IMG/VR virus record: IMGVR_UViG_3300010163_000397
Coordinates: 1 to 13,931 of that record
Reading direction: 5' to 3' (one strand)
Length of the DNA stretch: 13,931 nucleotides
DNA from: a virus
Shown: positions 1 to 13,931 of the stretch, piece by piece
How the letters are laid out: each line of letters opens with the position of its first letter
Numbering within the stretch: the first letter of the stretch is position 1
Translations under genes and position numbers: made by a program
Notes under the pieces: generated by a model
Database searches by the model: none
What the model was told of the DNA's origin: nothing
What the model saw: only the letters and a program-made list of their open reading frames with translations

Positions 1-2
1 TT

Positions 3-137
3 CTGGTGTTCAAATGGTGCGAAGAACAAGTCTCAACCGCGGAAGTGCTGAAACTGTCCATCCGGAAGCCTTTGTTTGGACATCGGCGAGGAAAGACCGT
101 CTTCCTCGTCTTCATGAACTCTAGAATCCCCAACTGA
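3..137 (+). CDS. 3' end of an upstream gene (partial, function unknown)
   Basis: Frame 3 is open from the window edge to TGA 135-137 and translates as ...LVFKWCEEQVSTAEVLKLSIRKPLFGHRRGKTVFLVFMNSRIPN*. It is co-oriented with the next gene and ends 12 nt before it. No motif recognised. Confidence 0.3.
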   Translation: MVFKWCEEQVSTAEVLKLSIRKPLFGHRRGKTVFLVFMNSRIPN

Positions 138-149
138 CGCTTTTTTGAT

Positions 150-650
150 ATGCCACGCAAACCAACATCTTTAATTCCACGGACGCACCGTGAACTGTGC
201 GAAATAGCAGAACGTTGGCTCATTGGCAAATATGGATGCCGTATTGCTATCGCGGAACCAAATTGCATCATCACCACGGAACAACCGGATGCAATCGGAT
301 GGCATGGGCGGGTCAGCGTACTCGTGGAAGCAAAGACAAGCCGTTCTGACTTTTTGGCAGATGCCAAGAAGCCTTTTAGAGCCAACCCTCAAGATGGCAT
401 GGGCATCTACCGTTACTACATTTGCGAGCCTGATGTCATCACGATAGATGACTTGCCGGAGCGTTGGGGGTTACTCCATGTACTGCAAGGCGGCCGAGTG
501 CGCGAGCTTCGAAGAAGTCAACGGTTTGAGGCGGATCGCGCCGAAGAACTAAGTCTCCTGACAGCCTGTCTTGCTATTCATAAACCTCTGAAAATTAGAT
601 CATCTATCAGTAGGAGAGTTTTTCAAATCGGAAAGGAGGATATTGCCTGA
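150..650 (+). CDS. PD-(D/E)XK nuclease-fold protein, MmcB-family-like
   Basis: 166-aa ORF. The motif PDAIGW...SVLVEAKTSRSDFLADAKKPFR...YRYYICEPDVI...LPERWGLLHV fits the D...E-x-K core followed by SRxDF and a C-terminal 'lP..wGLl' block, as I remember it for MmcB-like phage/bacterial nucleases. The stop lies 2 nt before the next start. Confidence 0.55.
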   Translation: MPRKPTSLIPRTHRELCEIAERWLIGKYGCRIAIAEPNCIITTEQPDAIGWHGRVSVLVEAKTSRSDFLADAKKPFRANPQDGMGIYRYYICEPDVITIDDLPERWGLLHVLQGGRVRELRRSQRFEADRAEELSLLTACLAIHKPLKIRSSISRRVFQIGKEDIA

Positions 651-652
651 TT

Positions 653-1804
653 ATGCCTACAAGATTGATCAGAGAAGGTATTCTGACTTCCGAGCGCGTC
701 GCCTCCCTTTCGTGGGAGGCCGAGGTGTTCTACCGACGCCTGATGTCTGTGGCAGACGATTACGGCCTTTATGACGCCAGGACGCCCATTCTCCGTTCTG
801 CGCTGTATCCTCTCCAACTCGACAAGATGAGCGAGTGCAATATTCAACGCTGCCTCTCCGCGTGTGAGGCCGCGGGGCTTATTCTGCTTTATTCTCACAA
901 TGAGAAGCCATACTTGATGATTCTGGGGTTCGACCAGCAGGGGAAGACTATGCCCAAATGGCCTCTTCCGAACGGTTACGAAGTGCTGAAAGTCTCCGAG
1001 AAGAAATACGAATTGAGGAAATTCGTAACAGGTCGTAACGATTCGCCTCAACCCGTTACTTATGCGAATGCGAATGCGGATGCGGATGCGGATGCGGATA
1101 AACAAAAAAATAATGCAGGGGGAAATAACACGGTGGATTGTAGCGAGCCGACCGCCGCTCCTGCACTGCCTGCCTCCCCAGAGGTGGAAGGGCAGTATTC
1201 CGAAAAACGAACAGAAAGGCCGCTCCCTGCCCGTTTTGGCTCCGAGTCGGTAAGTTGTGCCGTCGGAGCGAGAAACAGCCAGCAAGGGGCATCACAGGCT
1301 TTTACAGGGCCATTCCCGGAACGTGAACGGCTCAACGATGTCCGAGGAATGCGTTGCGCCGACAATCACGCGGATTTTGGAGCATCCCCAGATGCGGCCC
1401 GGTTCCTGACAGCTTGCCTTGAAATCAACCCCTCATGGGGGCGGACGCTTCCAACACCGGTTGAGCAGGCCGCCGCGCTTGAGGCGTACCGGTCAGCCAA
1501 GGGCCGCGTGACTCCGCGGGATATGGAGATGTTGAAGGCTTATTACCAATCGAATCTGACTGAAGACAGCCGCCGGAAACCGTTCTGGAGGCCAGACAGC
1601 CGCCGGAGGTTCTGGGAGAACTTCGGAGACGTCATCACTCATGCTGACCGCTGGGCTAAAGAGACGCGCTGGAAGCCGGCATCCGCCCGGAAAAAGCCGG
1701 TTCCAGAAGAACCTCGGCAGCCGGAAGGGCCGGTTGTGGATCTCAAAACAGCCGCCGATGAGTTGAGCGGGTTCAAAACTGAAATGGGGTGGAGCAATGA
1801 TTAA
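653..1804 (+). CDS. Putative phage replication/DNA-binding protein (N-terminal winged-helix-like domain, low-complexity linker, basic C-terminal domain)
   Basis: 383-aa ORF. The N-terminus (ILTSERVASLSWEAEVFYRRLMSVADDYGLYDARTPILRSALYPL...AGLILLYSHNEKPYLMILGFDQQ) resembles a widespread phage replication-module N-terminal domain. The middle is ANANADADADAD followed by a Pro/Ala-rich linker. Function is inferred only from position and this resemblance. Confidence 0.55.
   Translation: MPTRLIREGILTSERVASLSWEAEVFYRRLMSVADDYGLYDARTPILRSALYPLQLDKMSECNIQRCLSACEAAGLILLYSHNEKPYLMILGFDQQGKTMPKWPLPNGYEVLKVSEKKYELRKFVTGRNDSPQPVTYANANADADADADKQKNNAGGNNTVDCSEPTAAPALPASPEVEGQYSEKRTERPLPARFGSESVSCAVGARNSQQGASQAFTGPFPERERLNDVRGMRCADNHADFGASPDAARFLTACLEINPSWGRTLPTPVEQAAALEAYRSAKGRVTPRDMEMLKAYYQSNLTEDSRRKPFWRPDSRRRFWENFGDVITHADRWAKETRWKPASARKKPVPEEPRQPEGPVVDLKTAADELSGFKTEMGWSND
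1064..1099 (+). repeat. Hexanucleotide tandem repeat (GCGAAT)x2(GCGGAT)x4, in frame, encoding ANANADADADAD
   Basis: Read directly: gcgaat gcgaat gcggat gcggat gcggat gcggat, inside CDS 653..1804. Confidence 0.9.
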
Positions 1805-1810
1805 GCGCCC

Positions 1811-1846
1811 CCCCGGAAACTCGTACAAGCCCCGGAAACTCGTACA
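1811..1846. repeat. Two direct copies of CCCCGGAAACTCGTACA (19-bp period)
   Basis: Copies at 1811-1827 and 1830-1846 are identical over 17 nt. They lie just after the stop of CDS 653..1804, in the convergent intergenic region. Confidence 0.85.
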
Positions 1847-1848
1847 GG

Positions 1849-1871
1849 CCCCCGCCCATGCCGGGCGGGGG
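1849..1871. terminator. GC-rich hairpin between convergent genes (possible bidirectional terminator)
   Basis: CCCCCGCCC (1849-1857), loop ATGCC, GGGCGGGGG (1863-1871). This is a perfect 9-bp stem. No clear U-tract on either strand, so terminator function is uncertain. Confidence 0.4.
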
Positions 1872-1885
1872 GGGCAACGGGAAAA

Positions 1886-2488
1886 TCAGCGTGGGAGATT
1901 TTTTGTCGTCCCCCGTTCCATGATGAGCCTCATCAAAAGGCACATGGGTTCCGGAGGGGCGGGGTGGGAATCAAGCCACCTCCAGACTGTCAAATGAGTC
2001 ACGCCGATCACATCAGCGGCCCGGTTCACGGCCGCGGTTTTGCTGTTCAACTTGTGCGAGGTTTTCAAAAAGTCTAAAAATTGAACCAGCGTTTTGACTT
2101 CCGGCCCTCTCTCACCCTCAATGGAGGCCCCATAAGACCGGACGCCATCCCCGTCCCCGGTTTGAGGCGAAAAAATAAAACCATTCTCTTCAAGCTTCAT
2201 CCTTAAGAGCGATTTTAAATCGTCCTGTTTTTTTTCTGAAAGCCACGATGAAAATGAAATATAAAGAGTCACGTCCAAATCATCGTAGCTTTCAACGTCG
2301 TCAACCTCTTCACTCCATTCAGGATCTTGAAAAAGCAACACAACCCCGCCGTCATCAAGGGCGTTAACCTCAACTTCCTCTCCGTCAATGTCATCAGATT
2401 CAATCACAACGTTATCACGCACCAGCTCCGTTTCAAGTTCACGGCTGATGCGTTCCAGTTTAGCTTTAATTTCTTTGGTTACTTTCAT
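1886..2488 (-). CDS. Two-domain protein: highly acidic N-terminal half plus C-terminal helix-turn-helix (Cro/Xre/antitoxin-like) DNA-binding domain
   Basis: 200-aa ORF. The N-terminal half is rich in D/E (ESDDIDGEEVEVNALDDGG...DPEWSEEVDDVESYDDLD). The C-terminus, NSKTAAVNRAADVIGVTHLTVWRWLDSHPAPPEPMCLLMRLIME, has a typical HTH followed by the 'P...LL.li' tail seen in Xre/MqsA-like regulators. It is the second gene of the leftward operon. Confidence 0.7.
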   Translation of the reverse strand: MKVTKEIKAKLERISRELETELVRDNVVIESDDIDGEEVEVNALDDGGVVLLFQDPEWSEEVDDVESYDDLDVTLYISFSSWLSEKKQDDLKSLLRMKLEENGFIFSPQTGDGDGVRSYGASIEGERGPEVKTLVQFLDFLKTSHKLNSKTAAVNRAADVIGVTHLTVWRWLDSHPAPPEPMCLLMRLIMERGTTKNLPR

Positions 2489-2508
2489 TTTTTTGATTGG
2501 TTTGATTT

Positions 2509-2793
2509 TCAGGCTTTAGCAGTTACGAAGCGATTTTCAATGCAGAACCAGGTGGGGAGGGTCAAAAAGCAATCGCCCGCCCAGACTCCATCTTTTAGAA
2601 GTTCAATTTTTTCAACGAGGCTTTTTGGAATCCAATGGTAAGAGGAGCCACCGCAGCTGTAGTCCGTGTCAATCTGGATGGCTTTTTCGGATTCCTTGGA
2701 CACGATGGCGCGCACCTTGGAAAGCTTCCAGCTGGGCTTTATTGAGGAACCGAGTTTAGCTTCATCAATGCTTAATTTGTGGGTGATGATCAT
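2509..2793 (-). CDS. Small hypothetical phage protein (94 aa)
   Basis: ORF with a purine-rich leader (agaaagagaaaaagaaa ATG on the minus strand). It contains the 'KAIQI...HWIPKSLV...LPTWF' pattern that I recall from small phage proteins of unknown function. First gene downstream of the leftward promoter. Confidence 0.65.
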   Translation of the reverse strand: MIITHKLSIDEAKLGSSIKPSWKLSKVRAIVSKESEKAIQIDTDYSCGGSSYHWIPKSLVEKIELLKDGVWAGDCFLTLPTWFCIENRFVTAKA

Positions 2794-2850
2794 TTTCTTT
2801 TTCTCTTTCTATTGTTAATGTTTCCGGGGCTTCCCCCTCTCAACAAAGAC

Positions 2851-2879
2851 AAGATACTATCAAATTGATAGTGCGTCAA
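2851..2879 (-). promoter_or_regulatory. Leftward sigma70-like promoter: -35 TTGACG, 17-nt spacer, -10 TATCTT
   Basis: The minus strand reads agTTGACGcactatcaatttgatagTATCTTg. The -35 is at plus coordinates 2874-2879 and the -10 at 2851-2856. It sits about 50-60 nt upstream of the start of CDS 2509..2793. Confidence 0.5.
2856..2872. promoter_or_regulatory. 17-bp perfect palindrome ACTATCAA-A-TTGATAGT (candidate operator)
   Basis: Read directly. The two 8-bp arms are exact reverse complements around a central A. The palindrome fills the spacer of the leftward promoter. Confidence 0.75.
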
Positions 2880-2948
2880 CTAAAAAACAGATTTTTTTAA
2901 CGCGGAAGAATTTTTTTCAGCCGTCGCAAAAACTGACAAAGCCCGGAA

Positions 2949-2978
2949 TTGACAACGCATTTTTCAGCCGATTAAAAT
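2949..2978 (+). promoter_or_regulatory. Rightward sigma70-like promoter of the late operon: -35 TTGACA, -10 TAAAAT (18-nt spacer) or TTAAAA (17-nt spacer)
   Basis: TTGACA at 2949-2954 and TAAAAT at 2973-2978. The predicted start site is about 2985, only about 3 nt before the AGG at 2988. An 11-bp direct repeat TTTTTCAGCCG occurs at 2913-2923 and at 2960-2970, the second copy lying in the spacer. Confidence 0.45.
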
Positions 2979-2987
2979 TTTTCCAGC

Positions 2988-3500
2988 AGGAAAACGAAGA
3001 AGACAACCACGAAACGAAAGACAGGCAGGCCGAGCATCTATTCCGAAACGCTTGCACAAGAAATTCTAGAACGGCTCGCCTCCGGGGAAACCATGAAGTC
3101 CATCTGTTCTGATTCCAAGATGCCAACTGTTTGGACGGTTTGGTATTGGCGGGAAACCAAGCCGGAGTTTTCAAAACTCATTCAGCGCGCGCGGGAAATC
3201 CAATCAGAATCAATGCTGGACGAATGCACGGCGCTTTCAGATAAGGCCGCGGAAGTCGCTCTTGATGAGAAATGCGGTTCCGCGGCCGTGCAGGCGAAAA
3301 AGATTGCTATTGAAACACGGCTAAAAGTTGCGGCCCGGTTCGCCCCGGAAAAATTCGGAGACAGGGTAAGGCAAGACGTTGCCGGGGTTCCCGGAGCGCC
3401 GCTTGAGCGTAAAATCACGCTTGACCCTGACCAGCTGGCCCAGCTTCAGGAGGACGAAAAAAAAGCGTTGGAGACGATCGCCGGAAAGCTCCAGCGCTAA
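2988..3500 (+). CDS. terS: Terminase small subunit (HTH type); start codon non-canonical or unresolved. Minimal canonical ORF is 3093..3500
   Basis: The frame is open from 2976, after TAA at 2973-2975. The translation is NFSSRKTKKTTTKRKTGRPSIYSETLAQEILERLASGETMKSICSDSKMPTVWTVWYWRETKPEFSKLIQRAREIQSESMLDE...RFAPEKFGDRV. This fits the remembered TerS pattern GRPS.Y..E.a..I...la.G.sl..IC...gmP...TV..W....pEF...y.rARe.qad...K.YGD. The first ATG (3093) lies inside the HTH. No ATG, GTG, TTG or CTG occurs in frame between 2976 and 3092. Start candidates are AGG 2988, AGG 3027 and ATC 3036. Confidence applies to gene identity, not to the start. Confidence 0.8.
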   Translation, partial: RKTKKTTTKRKTGRPSIYSETLAQEILERLASGETMKSICSDSKMPTVWTVWYWRETKPEFSKLIQRAREIQSESMLDECTALSDKAAEVALDEKCGSAAVQAKKIAIETRLKVAARFAPEKFGDRVRQDVAGVPGAPLERKITLDPDQLAQLQEDEKKALETIAGKLQR

Positions 3501-3512
3501 ACCGGAAAGATT

Positions 3513-4883
3513 ATGAGACTCCCGGTCAGTTTTTTTCTTAGGCATGTTTTGGGCCTTGATCCTTATCCGTGGCAAACGGAAGCGATTAAGGCTTTATCGC
3601 TTGGAAAAATAGCTCTGGGAGGAAAAAGCGTTGCTCTTGTCGCTCCCAATGGTTCCGGGAAAACAAGCAATTGCATAGCCCCATCCATCCTCTATTTTCT
3701 GACCATATTCCCGCGCGGACAAGTCGCCGTAACGTCCTCATCTTGGCTTCAAGTCGAAAAACAGCTTTTCCCGGCGTTGCGCCGGTTCATGGACAACCCG
3801 TTTTTTTCAGGCTGGACGTTTAACAAAACAGAAATCAGAACACCGGAAGGGGGCTTCGTGCTGGGTTTTTCGACTGACAACGCCGGACGCGCGGAAGGAT
3901 GGCACCCCAAGATTTCACCAGAAATAGACCCGGTTTTTTATGTTCTCGACGAAGCAAAAACAATCCCGGATTCCATCTTCACCGCCGTTTCCAGGTGCAC
4001 TCTTTACCACGCCTTCATCACGTCATCACCTGGGGCGGATTCCGGAACCTTTTACGATTGCTTTCACAAAAATTCGCCCTATTACTACAAAATCCGCGTC
4101 AAATATGAGGATTGCCCTCATATTGAACAAAACGACCCCGGGAAGGCTGAACGCCTTAAAAAAGAATATGGCGAAACATCTTCATTTTATCGTTCAGCAA
4201 TCCTGGGCGAATTCACAGACCTTGAAGGCCAATCCGTGATTTCCCGCCGCGCCGTCATGGAGCTGATCAATAACCCGCCTCCGTTTTTGGACACGGGCGA
4301 AGTGTGCGGCGGCTTTGACTTCGCGGCGGGCGGCGATGAAAATGTTTTTGCCGCCGGAAAAGGCAACCGGTTTTTCATTGCCGACCATTGGTCGGATCCG
4401 GACACCGTAGGAGCCCGCGGACGGTTCCGGCGAAAAGCCTCTGAACTTGGGATCCCGGCGGATCATATTTTCGCAGACGGCGATGGGCTGGGCCTCCCCA
4501 TCATTGACGACTTCCGCGCCGAAGGCTTCCCGGTTCATTCATACCGGGGCGGGTTCCCCGCCAGCGAACAAAAAGCGTTTGTCAATTTACGAGCCCAGGC
4601 ATGGCGGGCGCTGGCCCGCGCCATTGAAGAAAAAGAACTCATTTTGGACGTGGATGAAGAGACGATTGAACAGCTGGTCGCCCCGCGCCTCCAAACAGAC
4701 GCCATAGGGCGTGTGAAGATTGAATCCAAGGAAGATATGATGAAGCGGGGCGTTCGTTCGCCTGACCGTGCGGACGCTCTCGTCATGGCGTGGCATGCGC
4801 GGCGAAATTGTGGACTGGTTCAAAATCTGGGTTGGTGGTATGACAGACGGCCCGCCAAAAAACGCGCCATCGGAAGATATTAG
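3513..4883 (+). CDS. terL: Terminase large subunit
   Basis: 456 aa. Walker A-like VAPNGSGKTS and Walker B-like FYVLDEAK. A C-terminal nuclease-like region carries acidic motifs (GFDFAAGGDENVF, ADGDGLG, SPDRADAL). It lies immediately after TerS with a 12-nt gap. Confidence 0.92.
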   Translation: MRLPVSFFLRHVLGLDPYPWQTEAIKALSLGKIALGGKSVALVAPNGSGKTSNCIAPSILYFLTIFPRGQVAVTSSSWLQVEKQLFPALRRFMDNPFFSGWTFNKTEIRTPEGGFVLGFSTDNAGRAEGWHPKISPEIDPVFYVLDEAKTIPDSIFTAVSRCTLYHAFITSSPGADSGTFYDCFHKNSPYYYKIRVKYEDCPHIEQNDPGKAERLKKEYGETSSFYRSAILGEFTDLEGQSVISRRAVMELINNPPPFLDTGEVCGGFDFAAGGDENVFAAGKGNRFFIADHWSDPDTVGARGRFRRKASELGIPADHIFADGDGLGLPIIDDFRAEGFPVHSYRGGFPASEQKAFVNLRAQAWRALARAIEEKELILDVDEETIEQLVAPRLQTDAIGRVKIESKEDMMKRGVRSPDRADALVMAWHARRNCGLVQNLGWWYDRRPAKKRAIGRY

Positions 4884-4886
4884 TGC

Positions 4887-4915
4887 TTTACAAAATATCA
4901 ACATATCTATATATA
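4887..4915 (+). promoter_or_regulatory. Sigma70-like promoter directly upstream of the tRNA: -35 TTTACA, 17-nt spacer, -10 TATATA
   Basis: TTTACA at 4887-4892 and TATATA at 4910-4915, giving a predicted start about 4922, 13 nt before the tRNA 5' end. The region is very AT-rich, so a chance match is possible. Confidence 0.4.
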
Positions 4916-4934
4916 TTGATACGTAAATGTAAAT

Positions 4935-5008
4935 CGCAGGGTGGTGAAACGCTATCACGCGGGGTTCCTGTCCCCGAATAGGAGGTTCAATTCCTCCCCC
5001 TGCAACCA
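4935..5008 (+). tRNA. tRNA with anticodon CCU (Arg by anticodon) and initiator-tRNA-like architecture; CCA encoded
   Basis: Hand-folded cloverleaf of 74 nt:
- Acceptor stem CGCAGGG/CCCUGCA, with C1(4935)xA72(5004) unpaired and pairs 2-7 Watson-Crick.
- U8 and G9.
- D stem GUGA/UCAC, with a 7-nt D loop AACGCUA that lacks the GG dinucleotide.
- Anticodon stem CGGGG/CCCCG and loop UUCCUGU. U33 is present, the anticodon is C34 C35 U36 at 4967-4969, and position 37 is G.
- Variable region AAUA.
- T stem GGAGG/CCUCC and T loop UUCAAUU.
- Discriminator A73, then CCA at 5006-5008. Confidence 0.85.
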
Positions 5009-5024
5009 AACTTTCTTTAAACTC

Positions 5025-6389
5025 AGGTTCAACGCCATCCGAAACATCATCAACGCTCCCAAGCTGGTTGTTCAACAGGAAACCAGAATCAAAGAGCTTG
5101 AAACGGATTTAGCGCGGAAGACTTTGACGAATCAAAGCCGGATTCCTGGGCGTCCTCAATGGTTTGAATATTGGGATCCGTTGCAGGGCGCGGACATGGA
5201 AACGCTGGTGGAGGCGCGAAATGAAGCCCGGCGCGGAGCCTACGCGCGCCAGATGCTTATCTGGGACGAAATTATTTATTCAGACGGAATGCTTGGAATG
5301 CTCTTTTCTCGTCTCATCGAGAGCGTTTCAATGCAGGGGTGGAAGATTGATTCAGCGAATGACAGCCCGGAGGCTCAGCGTCAAAAGACTGCTCTTGAGG
5401 AATTTTACAATTCCATCACAGGACTTCAAAAGGCTTTTGGTCAGCTCTCCACGGCATTATTTTACGGCTTCTCTCACCTGCAATTCATTGAAGACTCCTG
5501 GGGTCGAAGATTTGAGTTTATTCCGCAGCGCTATTGGGTGCGCCCCGGTGAACTCAACGAGTGGCAATTCAATCCACAATGCCACATCGGCGTTGATTCC
5601 GGAGAAAGTGTTGAAGATGAAACGCTGGTTATTCTTGAACACAAGAACCCCATTCTTTTTCCGGCATCAAGGGCGTCTTTTGAACGGAATCATGCAAAAA
5701 TGATTTGGGGCAATCACATGGATCGTTACGGATCCTCGCCCGCCATCATCACGGCTCCGGAAAACGCCAGCGCCGCGGTGATGGACGCTCTTGAAAAAGC
5801 CTGTGAAGAGCTCAAATCCGGCGGATCTATTGTGCTGCCTCCCGGATGCACCGCCGAACCGCTCAAGGCGTCCAACATCAGCGAAAACTATTTCATTTCC
5901 AGAATTAATATGGCCGATAAAGACCAAGTGCGCTTTGTGATGGCGGGCACCCTGACTGTTTTGAATGAGTCAGGTTCCGGAACGCTGGCGGGGTCGGCTC
6001 ATACCGACAGCTGGAATTCAGTAGTTTCCGCGGTGTGCTCCAAAGTTGCCGAAGCGTTCAACGCAGTCATCAACCCGTTGATTCTTGGGGACGTTGAATA
6101 TCTGGCCCGCCTCAATATCACTTTTGACACCGTCCAGACGCCGCTCCAAAAGGCCGAAGAGATCGCCGCCCTCGCTGATGGAGGGGTGCGGTTGGACAAG
6201 GCCGAAATTGAAGAAAAGATCGGAATGTCTGTTGAGGATGCGGACGCTCCGGAGCCGATGACGTCAGCAGTCAACCGTGAACCCGACGAACCCGGCATCC
6301 CGCCTGATGCTTTTGAACAGCTCCAACAAATCATCTACAACGGTTTAATCAAAGGATTCAGCGATGATCAGTTCAAAACAAATCAATAA
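5025..6389 (+). CDS. Portal protein, Mu gp29-like (DUF935-like); start unresolved
   Basis: The block DPLQGADMETLVEARNEARRGAYARQMLIWDEIIYSDGMLGMLFSRLIESVSMQGWKI resembles the N-terminal core of Mu-type portals (hPsrGltP..l..il..ae.Gd...q..l..dm.ekD.hl....kR..av..l.W.i). Size and position after TerL also fit. The ORF-track GTG start at 4941 lies inside the tRNA and is rejected. In-frame start candidates are AGG 5025, CTG 5064, TTG 5124 and ATG 5196. Confidence 0.85.
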   Translation, partial: RFNAIRNIINAPKLVVQQETRIKELETDLARKTLTNQSRIPGRPQWFEYWDPLQGADMETLVEARNEARRGAYARQMLIWDEIIYSDGMLGMLFSRLIESVSMQGWKIDSANDSPEAQRQKTALEEFYNSITGLQKAFGQLSTALFYGFSHLQFIEDSWGRRFEFIPQRYWVRPGELNEWQFNPQCHIGVDSGESVEDETLVILEHKNPILFPASRASFERNHAKMIWGNHMDRYGSSPAIITAPENASAAVMDALEKACEELKSGGSIVLPPGCTAEPLKASNISENYFISRINMADKDQVRFVMAGTLTVLNESGSGTLAGSAHTDSWNSVVSAVCSKVAEAFNAVINPLILGDVEYLARLNITFDTVQTPLQKAEEIAALADGGVRLDKAEIEEKIGMSVEDADAPEPMTSAVNREPDEPGIPPDAFEQLQQIIYNGLIKGFSDDQFKTNQ

Positions 6390-7479
6390 CCTTGATTCTG
6401 CTCCCGGGAATGGATGGTTCCACATCGAAAAAAGTGGGGATCATGAAGTTGACTACGGCGAAGGCCCATCAATTTTAAGGATTGATGAAGAGGCCATTGA
6501 AGCGATGGTTGCTGAATTCAATGCACGCACCTTTGACGGCCCAGGAATGTTGATTGATGGGGATCATTTAAGCCATGACCTATCACGAGACACCCGCGCC
6601 CTTGGGTGGCTGAAAAGATTGGACACCTACCAAGACCCTTCCGGATCGGTGGAGCTTTACGGATTCATCGAATGGACGCCGCGCGGCCGGAAGATGCTTG
6701 AGGATAAAGAATATACCCAATCATCAACAGAATATAACGAAGGACTTAAATTCAAAGAAGGCATCTATAAACCTTCAAAACTGACCGGCTTTGCCCTGAC
6801 CAACCGCCCCAGAATCAAGGGGAAGCGTCCGTTGGTAAATAGACAGACTTCCCCCACCTCCACAGGGGCCGGGGATGAAAACAAAAGCCCCGCAGGAGGG
6901 GAAACAACCCAGAAAAAAGACATGGAAAACGAAGAAAGAGAATATCCGTCCACGGAGATGGATAAGGCCCAGCGGGCCCTGTTTGACTCGTTGCTCGATA
7001 AATTGGATGTCGAATTTGACGGCACCGATGACATGAGCCGGGCCATCTTGGGACGTCTGGATGAACTTCTTGCGCTGGAAAAGCGTGAGAAAGACCACGT
7101 GAATTCCGAAGTTGAAGACGCCGTCAGCACGTATGAAAATGCGTTGGACGAGGAAGAACGGGAGGAGTTTACGGAAGAACGCCGGGAAGAGCTGAAAAAT
7201 TCTCTTCGGGAAAGCCCCGCTGCTCTGAGCGCTTTTGTACGGGCCTTGAACCGTCAGGCCCCTCCTAAGCCTCAGGACACTCCGGAACCTAAAGAGCTTC
7301 CAAAAAGGAAGCCTCTTAACCGCCGGGTTACTCAAAATCCGCCGAATCCGTTCATGAAAAAGGAATCCATTGACGGGTTCACCAACCGCGTTAATGAACT
7401 CATGAAGAACGGAATGAAGCGCTACGATGCTTATCAAAAAGCAACCGAGGAAGGCTTCATTGTCGTCAACGAACGCTAA
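6364..7479 (+). CDS. Mu gpI-like prohead protease / scaffold fusion
   Basis: 371 aa. GWFHIEKSGDH..., LIDGDHLSH, ALGWLKRL, FIEWTPRGRKMLEDKEY..SSTEY and GFALTNRPRIKG match the remembered Mu-like prophage I protein pattern. The C-terminal half is charged and coiled-coil-like, as expected for a scaffold. It overlaps the portal end by 26 nt. Confidence 0.8.
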   Translation: MISSKQINNLDSAPGNGWFHIEKSGDHEVDYGEGPSILRIDEEAIEAMVAEFNARTFDGPGMLIDGDHLSHDLSRDTRALGWLKRLDTYQDPSGSVELYGFIEWTPRGRKMLEDKEYTQSSTEYNEGLKFKEGIYKPSKLTGFALTNRPRIKGKRPLVNRQTSPTSTGAGDENKSPAGGETTQKKDMENEEREYPSTEMDKAQRALFDSLLDKLDVEFDGTDDMSRAILGRLDELLALEKREKDHVNSEVEDAVSTYENALDEEEREEFTEERREELKNSLRESPAALSAFVRALNRQAPPKPQDTPEPKELPKRKPLNRRVTQNPPNPFMKKESIDGFTNRVNELMKNGMKRYDAYQKATEEGFIVVNER

Positions 7480-7503
7480 TTATTAACTATTAACTAAAAA
7501 ACA

Positions 7504-7926
7504 ATGCCATCCATCAATATCACTCAAACGGATGCCGAAGTCTACTTCAACGCCCCGGAAGGCGCTGATTTATCGGCCTTGGAAGGTTCCGTGGTTTCTT
7601 TGACCGGGAATCCCGCTATTCCTGAATTAGTCGGCAATCCTCTGACGGCCCTTCCGACTCAAAGTCAGCTTCTTGGGCTTGTCACTCAAATTCAGCCGGA
7701 TAGGGGCACATGCTGCGCCGTTTTGGTAGGCATGTACGCCGGACTGGTCAAGGCGTCTCTCTCTGAAACGCCCGGCACAATAAGCGTTGGAACTCCCCTG
7801 ACTATTACAGCAAATGGGGCGTGGAAGGCCGCCGCCAGCGGTGACACCGTATACGCTCGCGCGATTCACAATCTATGGGAGCCCGGCAAAGTTGAAATCG
7901 GGTTTGTGGCGCCTTATCAGGCTTAA
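7504..7926 (+). CDS. Small head protein, DUF2190-like (decoration/cement candidate)
   Basis: 140 aa, positioned between protease/scaffold and major capsid. It is a Gly/Val-rich beta-type sequence (GLVKASLSETPGTISVGTPLTITANGAWKAAASGDTVYARA), typical of that family as I recall it. Confidence 0.5.
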   Translation: MPSINITQTDAEVYFNAPEGADLSALEGSVVSLTGNPAIPELVGNPLTALPTQSQLLGLVTQIQPDRGTCCAVLVGMYAGLVKASLSETPGTISVGTPLTITANGAWKAAASGDTVYARAIHNLWEPGKVEIGFVAPYQA

Positions 7927-7960
7927 TATCAATTCTAATTTTTAGAAAGACAATCAATCA

Positions 7961-8884
7961 ATGGCTAATCTATTTTATTCGGCGGTTCAGTTTACGGATG
8001 TACTAACATCATTTTCCGTTGGCGCGGGAAATACGGAAAGAGATTCTATGGTGAACCGGATCGCCCCGCTCGTCCCTGTGTACGATGTTTCATTTCAATA
8101 TATGGTGTGGGACACACCGGCCGCTTTTACGGTCGAACCCATCCAGGTGGCGCCCGGTGAACCTCCCCGGCAAACCTCAATGCTCGGAAAAACTGAAACG
8201 GACACTTTACAGGGATATGCTCTCACTGATCCGATTCCAGATATTTTGTTGGGGACGAATAAAGAAAAGGCTCAAGCGATTTTGTTATCTCATGCCAAAT
8301 TCCTTGAATCTAAATTCGTGACGTCTTACGAATATCAGCGCGCCAAACTTATTGAAAGTCAGGTTCCAGCGGCTTCTGGTTATGGAGATTGGGACAATCC
8401 TGAAAAAGATCCTATCGTTGATTTGAATAAAGCTCTTCGGACCATCAATGCAACGGCAGGGAAAATGCCAAATACAATTGTATTTGGTATGAGCGCCTGG
8501 TCCAGGCTTCGCGAAAATCCAAATGCTAAAAAACTCGTATCGTTTAACAGCGTTGGGGCGTTTAATGAGGCTCTTTTGCAGATTGCTTTGCTCAATCCTG
8601 TTGATGAAATTTACCTCAATAAAATGCCGTTTAGAGATTCATCAGGACAAGGCAAAACAATCATGGATGATGACGTCTATATTCTTTATAAAGAAGATTC
8701 TCCGACGCAATTTGACGCATCGGCAATTAAGACGTTCGCTCTTAATGGTCAATTTAATCGTGAAGTAACGACGGAATATTTCCCGACCAACAAGGAAACC
8801 AAGGTGACCAACCGGGTTTATTCGCTGACGAAGTTGACCAATCCCGGAGCAATCATCCGCATCAATACGGCGTCAGCCGCTTAA
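7961..8884 (+). CDS. Major capsid protein (HK97-fold, lambda-E-like by pattern)
   Basis: 307 aa. Position follows scaffold and decoration genes. The motif block WDNPEKDPIVDLNKALRTINATAGKMPNTIVFGMSAWSRLRENPNAKKLV resembles the 'dP..dl....i....G..pn.lv.g..aw..l..n' block of E-like capsid proteins. Confidence 0.7.
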   Translation: MANLFYSAVQFTDVLTSFSVGAGNTERDSMVNRIAPLVPVYDVSFQYMVWDTPAAFTVEPIQVAPGEPPRQTSMLGKTETDTLQGYALTDPIPDILLGTNKEKAQAILLSHAKFLESKFVTSYEYQRAKLIESQVPAASGYGDWDNPEKDPIVDLNKALRTINATAGKMPNTIVFGMSAWSRLRENPNAKKLVSFNSVGAFNEALLQIALLNPVDEIYLNKMPFRDSSGQGKTIMDDDVYILYKEDSPTQFDASAIKTFALNGQFNREVTTEYFPTNKETKVTNRVYSLTKLTNPGAIIRINTASAA

Positions 8885-8904
8885 CCCCTGAAACCGCCTC
8901 CATT

Positions 8905-9381
8905 ATGACAGCGTTTCCCGCATGGTCTCCAATTACCACGGATGAAGCCGACCGGCTTCTTGGCCTCAATACCGCGGAAAGAGATTCCCTTGTAAGGGCC
9001 GGGGAGCAGAGAAGCCTTGATTATCATGGCGTCATGATGGAGGCGGTGAATGATGTTTGTGTAGCCATCCGCGGGGCGTTGGCTAACAACCTCGCCCTGC
9101 GTCAATCCCTTCAAAACAGCGGGACTCATGATATTCCGCAAAGCATGAGGGCGTTAGCGTGGCCTTTAATTATCCGGCAACTCTACATCCGCTATCAAAT
9201 CAACCTGACCGAAACGCGCCAGAAGGCCGCGGAATCCGCAGATGAAATGTTGAGCCTTTACGCGCGCGGGGAAAGACTCCCTGAAAGCGTGGATGGCTCC
9301 GCTCCCGCGGATCCGGCCTACATGATGCCCCGCTACACGCGCCGCCCATGGTTCAATCCAATCAGAAGCACGTACCGATGA
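8905..9381 (+). CDS. Head-tail connector/adaptor candidate (DUF1320 / Mu gp36-like pattern)
   Basis: 158 aa, immediately after the capsid gene. The pattern is weak: ITTDEADRLLGL..., EAVNDVCVAIRGAL, IPQSMRALAWPLIIRQLY, AESADEMLSLYARGERLP. Confidence 0.45.
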   Translation: MTAFPAWSPITTDEADRLLGLNTAERDSLVRAGEQRSLDYHGVMMEAVNDVCVAIRGALANNLALRQSLQNSGTHDIPQSMRALAWPLIIRQLYIRYQINLTETRQKAAESADEMLSLYARGERLPESVDGSAPADPAYMMPRYTRRPWFNPIRSTYR

Positions 9382-10514
9382 TAACCGCAGCCCAAAGGGA
9401 GATGATCGCCAATGACTACGCCGAACGCGCGTTTTTCGTGTCCGGTGTGGAACCCGGCGTCATTTTGTCGGATTTTGAGGACAAGGCCCGTAAGGTGACT
9501 TCCGGGGCGTTGAGCTACGAGGAAGCCCAGCGGGCCATCCGGGAAATGTTGAGGAATCAGGGCTATGAACCGCCAGTTTTAGGTGAAGGAGGCATTCAGG
9601 ATTTGTCCTCCTGGGTCAGGATTCAGGTAGTCATTGAAACGAATGCCGCCATGGCCCACGGATTCCGGAACTGGTACAGCTGGACACAGGATGAAGACAC
9701 GGCCGCCTTTAAATTTTACCGCTCCCAGGGACGGGAAGACCCGCGTTATTGGGCTGAACGTTGGAACAGCGCTCGTGTAGGTTTGGAAGGAGAAGCTACG
9801 GAGGCGGTATCTTCCGGCTTCATCCGCGGTGATGTGGTGGGGTATGCTTTGGCCAATTCCGACATATGGATTAGGCTTTCTCGGTTCGGCACCCCCTACC
9901 CTCCATTTGATTACCTTTCCGGAATGAACATCGCCCCCATAGGTGTTGAAGAGGCGCGTTCAGCCGGTCTTGATGTTTCCCGCGTCAAACCTGCTCCATC
10001 AAGCTTCAACTCGACGCTGGAAAGCAACGCCAAGGGAGTTACTAAAAAGAATGCCGATAAAATCCGCCGGATCCTGAAAGACGCCGTGCGGATGGAAAAA
10101 CAGGAGGACGGCAACACCACGTTCATCTACACTGACCCAAACGGCACCCGGCCTTATTCTGATGCCGGGCTTGCTGATTTGCTGAAAGGTGATTTTCCGG
10201 AAGAAATCCCCTTGAGGCAGGCGGCGGCCTTTCGGCTTGGTATGGCAGGCGGCGCGGTTGTTGGCACCCTTTCCGCTCTCTATCTGGAACGTCTGATTGA
10301 CAGGTTGTTTTCTGAAAAAGAGGGCGTCTGGTATGCGCGCCCCGCTGACGTGGCGTCCGCGCCGTCTCTGACCTTCATTCCCGTTTCCAAGGTTGAGGAA
10401 GGGGATTTTACCTACCCCCTTCAATCCGGGCACGTCAAAAAGGTGGAAGACATTGCCGGAGCGCTTGAAGTGGAAATATCAACCCCCTATGTGTTAGCGT
10501 CAAAATGGGTATAG
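9378..10514 (+). CDS. Virion morphogenesis / minor head protein candidate (Mu F / SPP1 gp7-like N-terminal pattern)
   Basis: ATG 9378 forms an ATGA overlap with the upstream stop (9379-9381). The ORF-track start at 9348 is also possible. AFFVSGVEPGVILSDFEDKARKVTSGALSYEEAQRAIREMLRNQGY...RIQVVIETNAAMAHGFRNW loosely matches the Mu F-like head morphogenesis pattern. The C-terminal 200 aa are not recognised. Confidence 0.45.
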   Translation: MITAAQREMIANDYAERAFFVSGVEPGVILSDFEDKARKVTSGALSYEEAQRAIREMLRNQGYEPPVLGEGGIQDLSSWVRIQVVIETNAAMAHGFRNWYSWTQDEDTAAFKFYRSQGREDPRYWAERWNSARVGLEGEATEAVSSGFIRGDVVGYALANSDIWIRLSRFGTPYPPFDYLSGMNIAPIGVEEARSAGLDVSRVKPAPSSFNSTLESNAKGVTKKNADKIRRILKDAVRMEKQEDGNTTFIYTDPNGTRPYSDAGLADLLKGDFPEEIPLRQAAAFRLGMAGGAVVGTLSALYLERLIDRLFSEKEGVWYARPADVASAPSLTFIPVSKVEEGDFTYPLQSGHVKKVEDIAGALEVEISTPYVLASKWV

Positions 10515-11167
10515 CCGTTCACATTGATCAATCCGAGATTGACCGCGCGTTTGCCGATCTTTCGCCTTCAACGGAACAGCACAAGGTGGGGATTCGCAAG
10601 GCTGGGGTGGCTTTAAGCCTGCTGATTCAGAAAACCCTTAGGCAGCAGGGCAAGGATTACTATGACGGCGCGGCAGATGCCACCAGCATGGAAGAATCAT
10701 CAGAGGGTGTCACCGTCTCCATCGCCTGGCGCGGCATCGGCATTCATTGGGTGGGAACGCAGCGTTATCTTGGCGGCCCGCTCCGTCCCACGGGGCGCAC
10801 GTCTGAAATCACCGGACGGCCTATTAAAAATCTTGCTATACCGACAGCAAACGCCCCCCGCGGGCATGGTGATTTCAGGAGCATCTACAGCGCCGGATTC
10901 CGTCAGGATGATTTGGAGTTCATCCCCTCCAAAGGAGGAGGGAGGGGCGGCAATGTTACCGGCGTTCTCGTCCTCAAAACGGCCCAATCCTCCACCGGGA
11001 AAAAAACGGCGCGGAAGCTTTTCAAGAAGGGCACGAAAACGGGGGATGTCCTCTATGTACTTTGCCGTGAAGTTACAATCCCTCCAACCCCGGGGATTTT
11101 GCCTGCCATTGATGAAATGGCAAAGCACGCGGCCGAAAACTATCTTTCAAACATCGGAAAATCATGA
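10505..11167 (+). CDS. Structural (neck / tail-completion) protein, family not recognised
   Basis: 220-aa ORF, translationally coupled on both sides (10-nt overlap upstream, ATGA overlap downstream), in the head-tail joining position. Confidence 0.5.
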   Translation: MGIAVHIDQSEIDRAFADLSPSTEQHKVGIRKAGVALSLLIQKTLRQQGKDYYDGAADATSMEESSEGVTVSIAWRGIGIHWVGTQRYLGGPLRPTGRTSEITGRPIKNLAIPTANAPRGHGDFRSIYSAGFRQDDLEFIPSKGGGRGGNVTGVLVLKTAQSSTGKKTARKLFKKGTKTGDVLYVLCREVTIPPTPGILPAIDEMAKHAAENYLSNIGKS

Positions 11168-11694
11168 ACCCGTCTATTGATCAGACCTTGAGCCGCCGCA
11201 TCATTGAGCGGCTGAAAAACATTCAGGAATTGGGATGCCACGTGTTTGAACAGCCCTTTGACCCCCAGTTCGCCGCCAACGACATCATCATGTCGTCTAT
11301 GGGCAACAATGGGGTTGTGCTGGTTTCTCCGGGAGATGCGGAAGAATACCAGGACGGGCACGGGCAAACGGCGGTTCCAACTATGTGGAGGCAGTTTTTT
11401 ATCATTGCGGCCATCTACCACAACGCGGCCCTGTTCCCCGCGGAATGCCTGACGCCGGATTTTTATTTAAGAAAGATTGGCGATGAAATAGAACTGGCGC
11501 TTTGGGACTGGAACCCGTTTTACTTTGCCGCCCCTGCCATGATGAAGCCCAAGATTAAAGGCCGTTTTTCATCTTCCGCTATTATCGATGGCGAAAAGCG
11601 GCAAATGAACGTTTTAACCGTGGACTACCGCGTTCCGGTTAATATCAACATTAAATCACACCCTAAATTTAATGAGCAGAACACCAACAATTAA
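11164..11694 (+). CDS. Structural protein, family not recognised
   Basis: 176-aa ORF. ATGA overlap with the upstream gene at 11164-11167. Confidence 0.5.
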   Translation: MNPSIDQTLSRRIIERLKNIQELGCHVFEQPFDPQFAANDIIMSSMGNNGVVLVSPGDAEEYQDGHGQTAVPTMWRQFFIIAAIYHNAALFPAECLTPDFYLRKIGDEIELALWDWNPFYFAAPAMMKPKIKGRFSSSAIIDGEKRQMNVLTVDYRVPVNINIKSHPKFNEQNTNN

Positions 11695-11947
11695 AAAGAA
11701 AGCGCCGGAAACGGTGAAAGCGCCGGAAACGGTGAAAGCGCCGGAAACGGTGAAAGCGCCGGAAACGGTGAAAGCGCCGGAAACGGTGAAAGCGCCGGAA
11801 ACGGTTTCCGTCCGCGTCATCCGAACCCGCGCTGAACTGGATGGCGGGCTTGTTTTGAGCCTTGCCATGAAAACCGACACGCCCAATATTCCGGCGCCCA
11901 TTGCCGAAGCGTTAAAAACCCTGAACCTGATTGAAATCCATGACTAA
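11672..11947 (+). CDS. Small protein with (KAPETV)x6 tandem repeat
   Basis: 91-aa ORF that overlaps both neighbours. Its N-terminal third is encoded by six perfect 18-bp repeats. Confidence 0.55.
   Translation: MSRTPTIKKKAPETVKAPETVKAPETVKAPETVKAPETVKAPETVSVRVIRTRAELDGGLVLSLAMKTDTPNIPAPIAEALKTLNLIEIHD
11698..11805 (+). repeat. Perfect 18-bp tandem repeat x6 (GAAAGCGCCGGAAACGGT)
   Basis: Counted directly. There are six identical units at 11698, 11716, 11734, 11752, 11770 and 11788, in frame within CDS 11672..11947. Confidence 0.95.
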
Positions 11948-12134
11948 ACCAAACACTATTGCAGAACCTGAAAAAAAGACGGAAAATGCCGCCGCCATTG
12001 ATACGAAAATTCGCATCATGTCAAAAGAGCTTTTTATTGGAAAATCTACGTTCTTGAAGGGCGCGGAAATTCATGTTAAAAAAGAGCTTGCCGATAAACT
12101 GGAAAAAGACGGCAAGGCAATCATTATTTATTAA
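11940..12134 (+). CDS. Small hypothetical protein (64 aa from ATG 11940; ORF-track TTG 11931)
   Basis: ATG 11940 overlaps the upstream stop (11945-11947). Translation MTKPNTIAEPEKK...KELADKLEKDGKAIIIY. No family recognised. Confidence 0.5.
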   Translation: MTKPNTIAEPEKKTENAAAIDTKIRIMSKELFIGKSTFLKGAEIHVKKELADKLEKDGKAIIIY

Positions 12135-12156
12135 CCATCTAACTTTTTTAAGCATC

Positions 12157-12813
12157 AGGGCAACCACATACGAACCTACTTTCATCAATCGAAACGTAAC
12201 GCCCCAGATTACCGGCGTGCTTGCCATTTTTCTTCCGGACGGCATCAAAGTAACCGAAGACGGGGGGACGTCTTACATCACCGGCCCCAACCAGTTTCCG
12301 ACGCCTCCGGACATGCCCCCGGTAGATCCTACCGCCGGGCCGGAAGCTCCCTGGGTCAGTTTTGGCCTTCTCGGAGCCTTCCAATCCGTCGCTACACAGG
12401 TTGAGGGCGAAGTCACCCGCTTTTACGGCGGGGCGCTTGGTTATCGTGTGCAGCGAAAGAACACGACGACCGGGAAGCGCATGACCTTCACAACGCCGGA
12501 TATGTCCCCGGAATCCTTCCAGCTTTCCTTTGCGCTGGGGGCACCCCCGTCCAATGGCGAAGAGTCAACCACAATCGGCCATGGCGGAGACAATAAAATT
12601 GAAGGCTATCTCCGTTTCTGGTATCAAGACGACGTTGGCACTATTTATTTAGCCGGTACGGCACACGGAGCGTTGCGGCTATTGCAAGATCCGGAACACA
12701 CCACGGCGATTGCGTCGCGTCAGTTTGAATTTGAAATGGACTACCGCGGGAAATACCAGTTCACCCCGTCCAATGTTCAGGATGTGGTGACTAGCACATC
12801 CCCCGGATCCTGA
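12157..12813 (+). CDS. Putative major tail (tube) protein; start unresolved
   Basis: The frame is continuous with ORF-track 12073..12813. ATG 12073 would overlap the upstream gene by 62 nt. Other in-frame candidates are AGG 12157 (22 nt after the upstream stop, giving [14 protein letters not shown]...), GTG 12217 and ATG 12313. The tail assignment rests only on position, on beta-rich composition, and on the strong hairpin that follows. Confidence 0.5.
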
Positions 12814-12825
12814 TTGTTTAACCAT

Positions 12826-12864: not shown

Positions 12865-12865
12865 C

Positions 12866-13931
12866 AGGCAACAAGCGGGCCAGTATAATATCAAGACGGT
12901 TACGGGGCTTAACCAGTCTCTCGTGATTCGGCTGTTGGATTTTCAGGGCGACCCCGTAGATATGAGCGGCATCACCCTCCGCGGTGCGGTGCGCCTCAAG
13001 AGCGGCGTTTCAGAGTTCGGCTTTTCCCGTGATGTTGAAGGCAACAGCGTGATTTCATGGGAATCCGTTCCCGCCGGAATGTGGGCCTACGATCTTTTCA
13101 TGGACGACGGGAAAGAAGAAAAGCCGCTGCTTTTCGGAACCTTCATTTCATCCGGGCGGGTGACGCCGGATTTGCCGGATGAACAGCAGGCCGTTGCCGG
13201 GGCTGTGTTAGTCCAGCTTCCGGAAAAAACCGGATGCGTGCAAATCGTTCTTAACAACGCGTCAAGTGCTGCCTGGTATGCCGAACAGGCTAAAAAATAC
13301 GCCGAAAATTTCGGCTTGTCCGTGGGAAAAGTCACCACCGGAGAGCCCGGCACGCCAGCGGCCGCGGAAGCCGTCCGGGGAGAGGAACCCGGTTCATACG
13401 TCCTTTCATTTACGATCCCTCAAGGCCCGGAAGGTCTGCAAGGCCCGGTTGGCCCCCAAGGAGAGCCCGGCCCTCAAGGAGTTCCGGGCCCAACAGGCCC
13501 GCAGGGGGCAACAGGGGAACAAGGCCCGCAAGGGCCCAGGGGGGAACAGGGTGAACGCGGCCCGGAAGGCCCTCAGGGGCCGCAGGGCGAAACAGGCCCC
13601 CAGGGCCCGGCGGGGCCTGTTGGGCCTCAAGGCCCGCAGGGAGAAAAAGGGGATGCGGGCGATGTAAATGCGGATTCATCCTACATTTGGATTCAACCAC
13701 AGACTTTTACCGGAGCCATCAACGCCAACGGGGGCATCAACATTCCTCTTGCCGTGGGGGCGCCAACAGAAACGGCGGCGGTCAATCGCCTGTACGCTGC
13801 CGGGCTGGCTGCCGTGACGGAGGCGTTTTCTCCGCAAAGTTTCCTTTCAAGCTTCACCCTGTACGGCGGGAGCGTCGCCGTAGATCAGACGGTTCCCGGC
13901 CAGATGTGGAAACTCCGCAAGACGTCCGCAG
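12866..13931 (+). CDS. Collagen-like tail fibre protein (3' partial, runs off the window); start unresolved
   Basis: It is absent from the ORF track because it has no stop in the window. I translated the frame containing 13424 by hand and it is open from 12812 to 13931.
- The N-terminal region ([37 protein letters not shown]...[31 protein letters not shown]) looks like the Ig-like N-terminal domain common in phage fibre/baseplate proteins.
- 27 Gly-X-Y triplets follow.
- The C-terminus reads [27 protein letters not shown]...
- Start candidates are ATG 12824 (inside the hairpin), AGG 12866 and ATG 12962. Confidence 0.85.
13424..13666 (+). repeat. Collagen-like Gly-X-Y repeat region (27 triplets)
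   Basis: [81 protein letters not shown], read directly in frame. Confidence 0.95.

Follow-up and report, generated by a model that had tools for sequence, protein, structure and literature searches.

The DNA analyzed here, a stretch of 13,931 nucleotides (nt) referred to below as the window, is the phage contig IMGVR_UViG_3300010163_000397 of IMG/VR (positions 1 to 13,931), and our subject is the start of its small terminase (TerS) gene together with a phage-encoded tRNA that carries a CCU anticodon. This 13.9-kb contig contains a replication initiator gene (653-1804), two leftward genes, and then a packaging, head and tail module in the order TerS, large terminase (TerL), tRNA, portal, protease (6364), scaffold-like gene (7504), major capsid protein (7961), head-completion and tail genes. 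The best-matching proteins stem from Akkermansia prophages and human-gut metagenomes. An isolated relative exists in the form of the Akkermansia phage DTMo-2021a (CP084202.1; L064 among the loci we compared), a genome of 31,946 bp that is deposited without annotation and whose recorded host is A. muciniphila NBRC 114322. The features at the beginning of the module are the following.

2949..2978, + strand: sigma-70-like promoter (TTGACA, 18 nt, TAAAAT; 11/12 matches)
2988..3500, + strand: TerS of the Sf6 gp1 type, 170 codons counted from AGG (PF20901, PHROG 1482, PDB 3HEF/4DYC)
2988..2990, + strand: AGG, the proposed TerS start, invariant in 84/84 loci and adjoining the family N-terminus
3027..3029, + strand: second in-frame AGG, an internal arginine codon that encodes the R of GRPS and has CGG or CGC as its counterpart in most relatives
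3093..3095, + strand: first ATG, an internal methionine codon and the start used by gene callers (135-aa product P0001); homology reaches at least 30 codons further upstream

TerS was compared across 84 Akkermansia phage, prophage and satellite loci taken from Logan, ENA, IMG/VR contigs, NCBI Akkermansia genomes and the isolate. For a census of start codons, family N-termini were placed by tblastn on about 100 loci and the codon found at the start position was read, with ATG, GTG, TTG and CTG counted as canonical starts.

Following the stop codon TAA at 2973-2975, the TerS frame runs through 39 codons (2976-3092) without any canonical start until the first ATG is reached at 3093, exactly as the original prediction had read it. 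The chance of such a gap is about 0.1, so that alone it is not improbable; it gains meaning because TerS homology starts about 30 codons upstream of ATG 3093. The prediction had placed a conserved family start in this region, and profile searches bear it out. Positions 1-105 of the 106 of Pfam PF20901 (Sf6_terminase) match residues 22-133 of the translation from 2976 (E=1e-27), a full-length match that requires translation from upstream of ATG 3093; PHROG 1482 matches from residue 9 of the same translation (E=2e-31); and the alignment with Sf6 gp1 (PDB 3HEF/4DYC, E about 1e-14) brings residue 3 of 4DYC opposite TerS residue 8 counted from AGG 2988. The profile and Sf6 gp1 alignments thus indicate that the family N-terminus adjoins AGG 2988. 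A distant homologue that has an ordinary ATG begins MSARKTKKKTGRPSIY and shares this N-terminus. Translated from ATG 3093, TerS would lack the equivalent of Sf6 gp1 residues 1-30; loss of the first helix of the helix-turn-helix segment had been anticipated.

The 135-aa call from ATG 3093 recurs in the databases in hundreds of entries, with clusters of 460 and 78 member sequences, and might be taken to mean that TerS truly starts there as a functional, N-terminally truncated protein, the upstream homology being a decaying remnant. We consider this very improbable, as the 35 codons upstream of the ATG are conserved as protein, with synonymous changes, across 33 contexts, and the Sf6-type DNA-binding domain begins within them. 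Furthermore, the same pattern of a missing start is found in the portal, TerL and capsid genes, where truncation would cost 9-76 conserved codons.

Two in-frame AGG codons had been put forward as possible starts, and the comparison separates them. At the position of AGG 2988, the 84 loci without exception have AGG AAA and, behind it, a stretch rich in A and K; they represent 33 distinct contexts of 42 nt, and TerS read from this codon begins X-KKKASP... (X denoting the residue at the start). By contrast, AGG 3027 does not hold as a candidate; most relatives have CGG or CGC there, and the codon represents an internal arginine. The upstream regions of TerS fall into several unrelated families, with the nearest in-frame stop 2, 3, 4, 11 or >50 codons away, and in most loci the next canonical start lies 13-45 codons 3' of the AGG. 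Initiation at a different rare codon had been entertained as well, either at ATC 3036 or ATT 3063 or through readthrough of TAA 2973 from TTG 2949. Translation table 11 does allow ATA, ATC, ATT and CTG as rare starts, and PGAP picked ATA for TerS in one lineage of relatives (L005-L008, position 4001) and CTG in another (L060-L062, position 6001). Nonetheless, none of these alternative codons is conserved among the relatives, AGG alone being invariant, while TTG 2949 belongs to the TTGACA hexamer of the -35 region and the stop upstream of TerS shifts in position and identity by lineage. Both the rare codons and the readthrough are hence highly unlikely. Even more remote is a sequencing or assembly error, which might be suspected in a window that consists of one metagenomic contig: the same architecture is present in about 100 independent assemblies, including the isolate CP084202.1 and the prophages of several Akkermansia genome assemblies, which leaves this explanation with a negligible probability.

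The putative promoter of TerS lies close to the AGG. TTGACA-18-TAAAAT is the top promoter-like site in the region 2780-5100, and its -10 hexamer ends 9 nt before AGG 2988. When 19 distinct relatives are lined up at the AGG, each of them shows a TTGAnn-17/18-TAnnnT element that ends 6-9 nt before this codon, an example being TTGAAT-18-TATAAT-agagccgc-AGG. A promoter scan of L064 called neither the TerS nor the tRNA promoter, and the promoter evidence in that genome is an alignment by eye. Judged by the promoter spacing, the TerS mRNA probably carries no leader, or one that does not exceed about 3 nt. In relatives such as L015, L005, L001 and L020, whose sequences otherwise diverge here, a conserved AAGAACAAACAA box directly precedes the -35 hexamer, about 45-60 nt before the TerS AGG; the window lacks this box, which could be bound by a late-gene activator.

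The unusual start is not restricted to TerS. AGG is fixed at the start position in six or seven gene families, and four genes of the window begin with it (2988, 5025, 12157, 12866). The genes concerned, next to TerS, are listed here.

3513..4883, + strand: TerL, ATG start here (PHROG 2)
5025..5027, + strand: AGG, the proposed portal start (AGG in 99/99 loci)
5025..6389, + strand: portal protein, Mu-type (PF06074, E=1e-30)
7961..8884, + strand: major capsid protein, ATG start here (PHROG 1005)
12157..12813, + strand: tail-module protein, proposed AGG start at 12157 (AGG in 12/12 loci)
12866..13931, + strand: tail-fibre-like protein, proposed AGG start at 12866, running off the window end (AGG in 9/9 loci)

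Invariant at the portal start (99/99 loci), AGG also occupies the start position of TerL in 83/85 loci, with ATG in the window and L063 only, and that of the major capsid gene in 77/78 loci, where the window again has ATG. For the two tail families, the counts given above come from 11 contexts (12157) and 6 contexts (12866), respectively; tail-fibre PHROGs match the L064 orthologue of the latter, and a further tail-region gene of the isolate, 730 codons in length (L064 28905), starts with AGG as well. Control genes read in the same manner start with ATG throughout: the protease in 96/96 loci, the scaffold-like gene in 82/82, and the head-module genes at window positions 8905, 10505 and 11164 in 70/70, 16/16 and 15/15, respectively.

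ATG and AGG replace each other at orthologous starts. The capsid gene of the window reads TCA ATG GCT AAT CTA TTT TAT and that of the isolate ACA AGG GCT AAT CTA TTT TAT, so that the very same codon is exchanged; read from this position, the capsid protein begins X-ANLFYSAVQ..., and the next canonical start follows only 19-62 codons beyond the AGG. At the orthologous start of TerL, ATT ATG AGA CTC CCG GTC of the window corresponds to ACC AGG ACA CGC CTC CCC GTC of the isolate. We regard the anatomy of these genes, their conservation and the interchange of ATG and AGG as direct observations. For the portal gene, the AGG sits 16 nt after the 3' end of the tRNA in the window, and the spacer between them measures 15, 16, 22, 23, 24 or 29 nt among the loci, a variation in length that marks it as non-coding. 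Amino-acid conservation of the portal starts exactly at the AGG, from which the protein reads X-FNALKNILNAPK..., and no canonical start follows until 33-76 codons further downstream.

The canonical codons offered as starts of these genes were examined and discarded. The GTG codons at 4941/4944, chosen by the open reading frame finder for the portal, both fall within the tRNA, and in most relatives they do not share the portal frame. ATG 12073, a candidate for the tail-module gene, is inside the preceding gene, and the L064 frame opens just 5 codons before the AGG. ATG 12824, a candidate for the tail-fibre gene, is present in the window alone, and the upstream frames vary among the relatives. 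Positions 12825-12865, situated in front of the tail-fibre AGG, form a G+C-rich hairpin (GGGGAGCG act CGCTCCCC) followed by a pyrimidine/T run that ends at AGG 12866; this arrangement, kept in relatives, may represent a structured leader ahead of the AGG start or an element resembling a terminator.

Across these families, the sequences on the two sides of the start AGGs behave differently. The upstream flanks are non-coding, with insertions and deletions that are not multiples of three, unrelated sequence families, and stops 2-11 codons away in most loci. Downstream, conservation is in frame with synonymous changes; other arginine codons drift among CGG, CGA and AGA, and the start AGGs remain fixed. 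Several of them are preceded by pyrimidine-rich tracts, and a Shine-Dalgarno sequence was not seen before the AGG starts; it is likewise missing from most ATG genes of the window. Logan and JGI gene calls shorten TerS, TerL, portal and capsid. These shortened calls, together with the ATA and CTG starts selected for TerS, are a systematic annotation artefact of AGG starts.

The original prediction had also pointed to an initiator-like tRNA with a CCU anticodon downstream of TerS, and this element is present between TerL and the portal gene.

4935..5008, + strand: initiator-type tRNA, anticodon CCU, 74 nt, CCA encoded (ARAGORN; Rfam tRNA 51.6 bits)
4887..4915, + strand: promoter-like TTTACA-17-TATATA before the tRNA, recognized by eye and weak, without a call in the consensus scan

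At the site of this promoter-like element, relatives have TTGACA-17-TATATG. The tRNA occupies the same place between TerL and portal in 97 loci, in 23 sequence variants, has the CCU anticodon in all 97, and is linked to an AGG-start portal gene in 97/99 loci. All 20 cloverleaf pairs (20/20) are formed in every one of the 23 variants; compensatory double changes occur in 8 pairs, among them the acceptor-stem pairs 4:69 and 7:66, and 0/500 shuffles reach the observed covariation. In E. coli, a mismatch at 1:72, G2:C71, C3:G70, A73 and the G:C pairs of the anticodon stem serve formylation, exclusion from EF-Tu and binding to the ribosomal P site. The tRNA of the window possesses C1xA72, G2:C71, C3:G70, A73, three G:C pairs (G29-31:C39-41) and the anticodon loop UUCCUGU. 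C stands opposite A at 1:72 in 23/23 variants despite the covarying acceptor pairs, so that the Watson-Crick 1:72 pair of an elongator tRNA-Arg(CCU), on which use by EF-Tu depends, is absent from each of them. Of the bases that determine formylation, which are those of E. coli tRNAfMet, G2:C71 is found in 22/23 variants (G.U in one), and C3:G70 and A73 are invariant; the three anticodon-stem G:C pairs are found in the window and in 19/23 variants, with 30:40 invariant. The anticodon is not the CAU that goes with methionine identity in tRNAfMet. By its sequence, tRNA(CCU) would act like an initiator, and it is not a member of tRNAfMet in the strict sense, as it carries CCU in place of CAU.

A BLAST search against 50,697 phage genomes returned the tRNA of the Akkermansia isolate with 88% identity and, among the other full-length matches listed, identities of 74-79%; wherever one of these listed matches outside the family bears a tRNA annotation, it is a tRNA-Met gene of a Streptomyces or Stenotrophomonas phage and never a tRNA-Arg. 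Global identity amounts to 68% with E. coli tRNAfMet, 56% with E. coli tRNAArg(CCU) and 74% with the IMG/VR phage tRNAfMet(CAU) of L078, the initiator and arginine references being E. coli's rather than those of the Akkermansia host.

These properties bear on a further explanation, in which the host fMet-tRNA(CAU) reads the AGG start inefficiently with a mismatch in the middle position and the phage tRNA merely supplements the elongator tRNA-Arg pool. A single position separates AGG from AUG, the phage tRNA is Arg(CCU) according to ARAGORN, the U11:A24 pair of the D-stem is elongator-like, and phage tRNA-Arg genes are common. An elongator tRNA-Arg would, however, not be expected to retain C1xA72 in 23/23 variants while other acceptor pairs covary, and its nearest sequences outside the family, among the matches listed, would hardly be tRNA-Met. 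Likewise, tRNAs that read ANN codons normally have A37 (t6A), as E. coli argW does, whereas the window and 21/23 variants have G37. Internal AGG accounts for 9-14% of the arginine codons in the phage as opposed to 9% in three adjacent host genes; it is therefore not over-used and lends no support to a codon-supplement role of the tRNA. If AGG were read as a near-cognate codon, capsid and portal, both major virion proteins, would rest on a very weak start, and the tight linkage between the tRNA and AGG starts would be left without explanation. We thus judge this explanation to be unlikely, even if it is the strongest of the competing ones.

The interpretation that we favor with considerable confidence, on the basis of sequence comparison, is that the phage tRNA(CCU) initiates translation at the AGG codons of packaging and virion genes. 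This was already the proposal for TerS, and the comparison supports it and extends it to portal, TerL, capsid and two tail-module genes. AGG would then be the start codon of TerS, portal, tail-module protein and tail fibre in the window, and of TerL and the major capsid protein as well in most relatives. Between TerL and portal, a promoter of its own would drive transcription of the tRNA, which would subsequently be aminoacylated, with arginine as the default guess for the charged amino acid in view of C35-U36. The host formyltransferase would formylate it, and EF-Tu would avoid it owing to C1xA72, G2:C71, C3:G70 and A73. IF2 would deliver it to the 30S P site, where IF3 and 16S rRNA would accept it via the anticodon-stem G:C pairs and where it would pair perfectly with AGG. 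Internal AGGs would stay ordinary arginine codons read by a host elongator tRNA, and the 5' end of the portal mRNA may arise by tRNA processing. Genes that begin with AGG would in this manner depend on expression of the phage tRNA, which could operate as a lock or timer on late genes and virion production. Charging, formylation, use in the P site and regulatory purpose are steps that we infer, and our confidence in the regulatory purpose is below that in AGG initiation itself.

Several observations weigh against initiation at AGG by tRNA(CCU). The A11:U24 pair of initiators is replaced by U11:A24 in 23/23 variants, and the rule of three anticodon-stem G:C pairs is not absolute, as two variants carry A:U at 29:41 and two carry U.G at 31:39. 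By E. coli rules, a tRNA with a CCU anticodon would be a poor substrate of methionyl-tRNA synthetase. A20 is an identity element for arginyl-tRNA synthetase (ArgRS), and position 20 is U by our numbering of the 7-nt D-loop, so that the tRNA is possibly a weak ArgRS substrate, too. The formyltransferase handles basic aminoacyl groups such as lysine poorly; formylation of a basic aminoacyl group may consequently be inefficient. E. coli unleadered mRNAs reportedly need AUG itself, and not just complementarity between codon and anticodon (Van Etten and Janssen, 1998), which argues against a strictly leaderless AGG mRNA. Moreover, an in-frame ATG occurs near the TerS AGG in a few loci, upstream of it in L020, L021 and L023 but shortly downstream of it, right in front of GRPS, in L063; these loci nonetheless retain the AGG AAA architecture and the promoter spacing. 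A role of G37 in pairing with the mRNA nucleotide at -1 was considered and rejected. C precedes the start AGG of TerL in 83/83 loci, of portal in 98/99 and of TerS in 78/84, reminiscent of an effect of A37:U(-1) described in E. coli (PMC10018350). Yet variants with A37 (the L091 group and L107) retain C(-1), the capsid AGG always has A(-1), and internal AGGs in the late genes of L064 are also preceded by C in 16/21 cases.

The tRNA displays further peculiarities. tRNAs almost universally have U, as pseudouridine, at position 55, and most variants show UCCAACU or UCUAACU in T-loop columns 52-58, with C55; the window has the canonical UUCAAUU. This odd T-loop sets the tRNA apart from a tRNAfMet, as do U11:A24 and the anticodon loop UUCCUGU with its G37. 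At window position 4952 (tRNA position 19), C is found where all but two of the other variants have G19, so that the D-loop is AACGCUA versus AACGGUA; C19 would break the usual tertiary pair G19:C56. The window is also the lineage with ATG at both TerL 3513 and capsid 7961, and it may be less dependent on tRNA(CCU). In L092 and L131, just the last 14 nt of the tRNA (TTCCCCTGCAACCA) are left before the AGG-start portal gene, about 130 nt upstream of the AGG, and an unrelated module that encodes a coiled-coil protein and a GYF-like membrane protein lies upstream. This suggests recombination or integration at the 3' end of the tRNA, and these two genomes would need tRNA(CCU) from elsewhere.

Engineered initiator tRNAs are the systems most akin in their logic. 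Those with altered anticodons are reported in work of RajBhandary and Varshney. The E. coli amber tRNAfMet(CUA) and tRNAfMet(AAC) combine an initiator body with a changed anticodon and a complementary non-AUG start, genes that were given the special codon depend on the special tRNA, and a phage biocontainment design follows the same logic. According to PMC11744186 and bioRxiv 10.1101/2021.05.25.445580, initiator tRNAs with a changed anticodon start translation at the complementary non-AUG codon; engineered orthogonal initiator tRNAs are also the topic of bioRxiv 10.1101/2024.07.29.605542. Neither AGG nor CCU is mentioned in PMC11744186. Unlike these constructs, the tRNA(CCU) is natural, phage-encoded and conserved in a lineage, has U11:A24 and mostly G37, and its codon AGG serves as a sense codon internally, too. 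Translation from GUG, UUG or the AUU of infC by fMet-tRNA resembles our case in that the start is non-AUG and the choice of start regulates; the GTC start of Streptomyces sigR (PMC5472188) is a further non-AUG example. Such near-cognate systems rely on a single CAU initiator, a mismatch and discrimination by IF3, which checks codon-anticodon complementarity (PMC10158994), whereas here a dedicated tRNA would be cognate to its codon.

The tRNAfMet(CAU) genes of phages (Streptomyces and Stenotrophomonas phages; L077, L078, L080 and L081 of IMG/VR) are closest in sequence, with 74-79% identity, and that of L078 has the same CGCAGGG/CCCUGCA acceptor stem at 74% overall. Unlike tRNA(CCU), they have retained CAU and act at AUG, GUG and UUG starts. 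The crAss-like and Lak phages that recode stop codons share with the present phages a phage tRNA that alters codon reading, mostly in late or structural genes, and a dependence on a phage product; there a stop codon is reassigned in elongation, here a sense codon would be read anew at initiation. The late genes here are uninterrupted open reading frames and the sole tRNA is CCU, and the likeness to suppressor-based recoding is conceptual only. TerS itself is a clear homologue of Sf6 gp1-type proteins (PF20901; 3HEF, 4DYC) from the N-terminal DNA-binding region on, and only the start codon differs.

Related tRNAs were sought with a narrow structural pattern, which asked for a tRNAfMet-like gene with a CGCNGGG acceptor, A72/A73 and a GGG/CCC anticodon stem but a non-CAU anticodon. 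Among 2.9 million IMG/VR contigs, this pattern, narrow and therefore weak as negative evidence, retrieved only the present phage family; matches with DNN anticodons were offset CAU initiators, and there were none with CAV. In 185,579 species genomes, it recovered two real tRNAs, both chromosomal with a change from CAU to CCU, and seven other matches that are false positives in coding sequences. The two chromosomal initiator tRNAs with CCU reside in a Parcubacteria metagenome-assembled genome (JABMPZ010000105.1, L065, 41-114) and in Neobacillus piezotolerans (NZ_QNQT01000019.1, L071, 74-147) and are otherwise canonical (CGCGGGG...CCCCGCAA, anticodon loop CUCCUAA). The Neobacillus gene is directly upstream of tRNA-Asp; on the Parcubacteria contig, a tRNA-Asp is about 2.2 kb away, and a tRNA-Met with a paired 1:72 looks like an elongator. 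Both tRNAs might be additional AGG initiators, but also spare copies that have mutated, or errors of sequencing.

A chromosomal island (L060-L062; for instance A. massiliensis CP118234.1 1297654-1310082) lies beside tRNA-Tyr and comprises an integrase, a TerS homologue with 58% identity, small genes and a Toprim primase. Its TerS open reading frame (5923-6429) reads TAG ATT TTA TCC AGC AGG AAA... and has no canonical start before the helix-turn-helix segment. Neither TerL nor portal is found beside this TerS, and within the 12.4 kb examined there is no tRNA(CCU). By its gene content the island looks like a phage satellite, and it may depend on the AGG initiator tRNA of a helper phage.

To our knowledge, a single initiator species, tRNAfMet(CAU), begins all translation in bacteria, be it cellular or viral, and non-AUG starts are near-cognate readings by this same tRNA. 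Full-text literature searches retrieved engineered non-AUG initiator tRNAs and no natural one. Within the limits of this literature coverage and of the narrow pattern, the proposed AGG-initiator tRNA is a new kind of system. Collectively, we think it likely that a lineage of temperate phages of Akkermansia, a human gut bacterium, uses a private AGG start codon and has locked virion production to its tRNA, and that a satellite may make use of the tRNA of its helper. Since an isolated phage (CP084202.1) and a culturable host are on record, the idea of AGG initiation is directly testable. Standard gene callers systematically mis-annotate genes that start with AGG, and comparable systems elsewhere may have escaped notice for the same reason. 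If our interpretation holds true, a second natural initiator anticodon would constitute a new departure from the standard genetic code, placed at initiation rather than at stop codons, and would be the natural counterpart of engineered orthogonal initiator tRNAs. For the phages themselves, it would amount to a new mechanism of late-gene control and possibly to a new form of dependence of a satellite on its helper.

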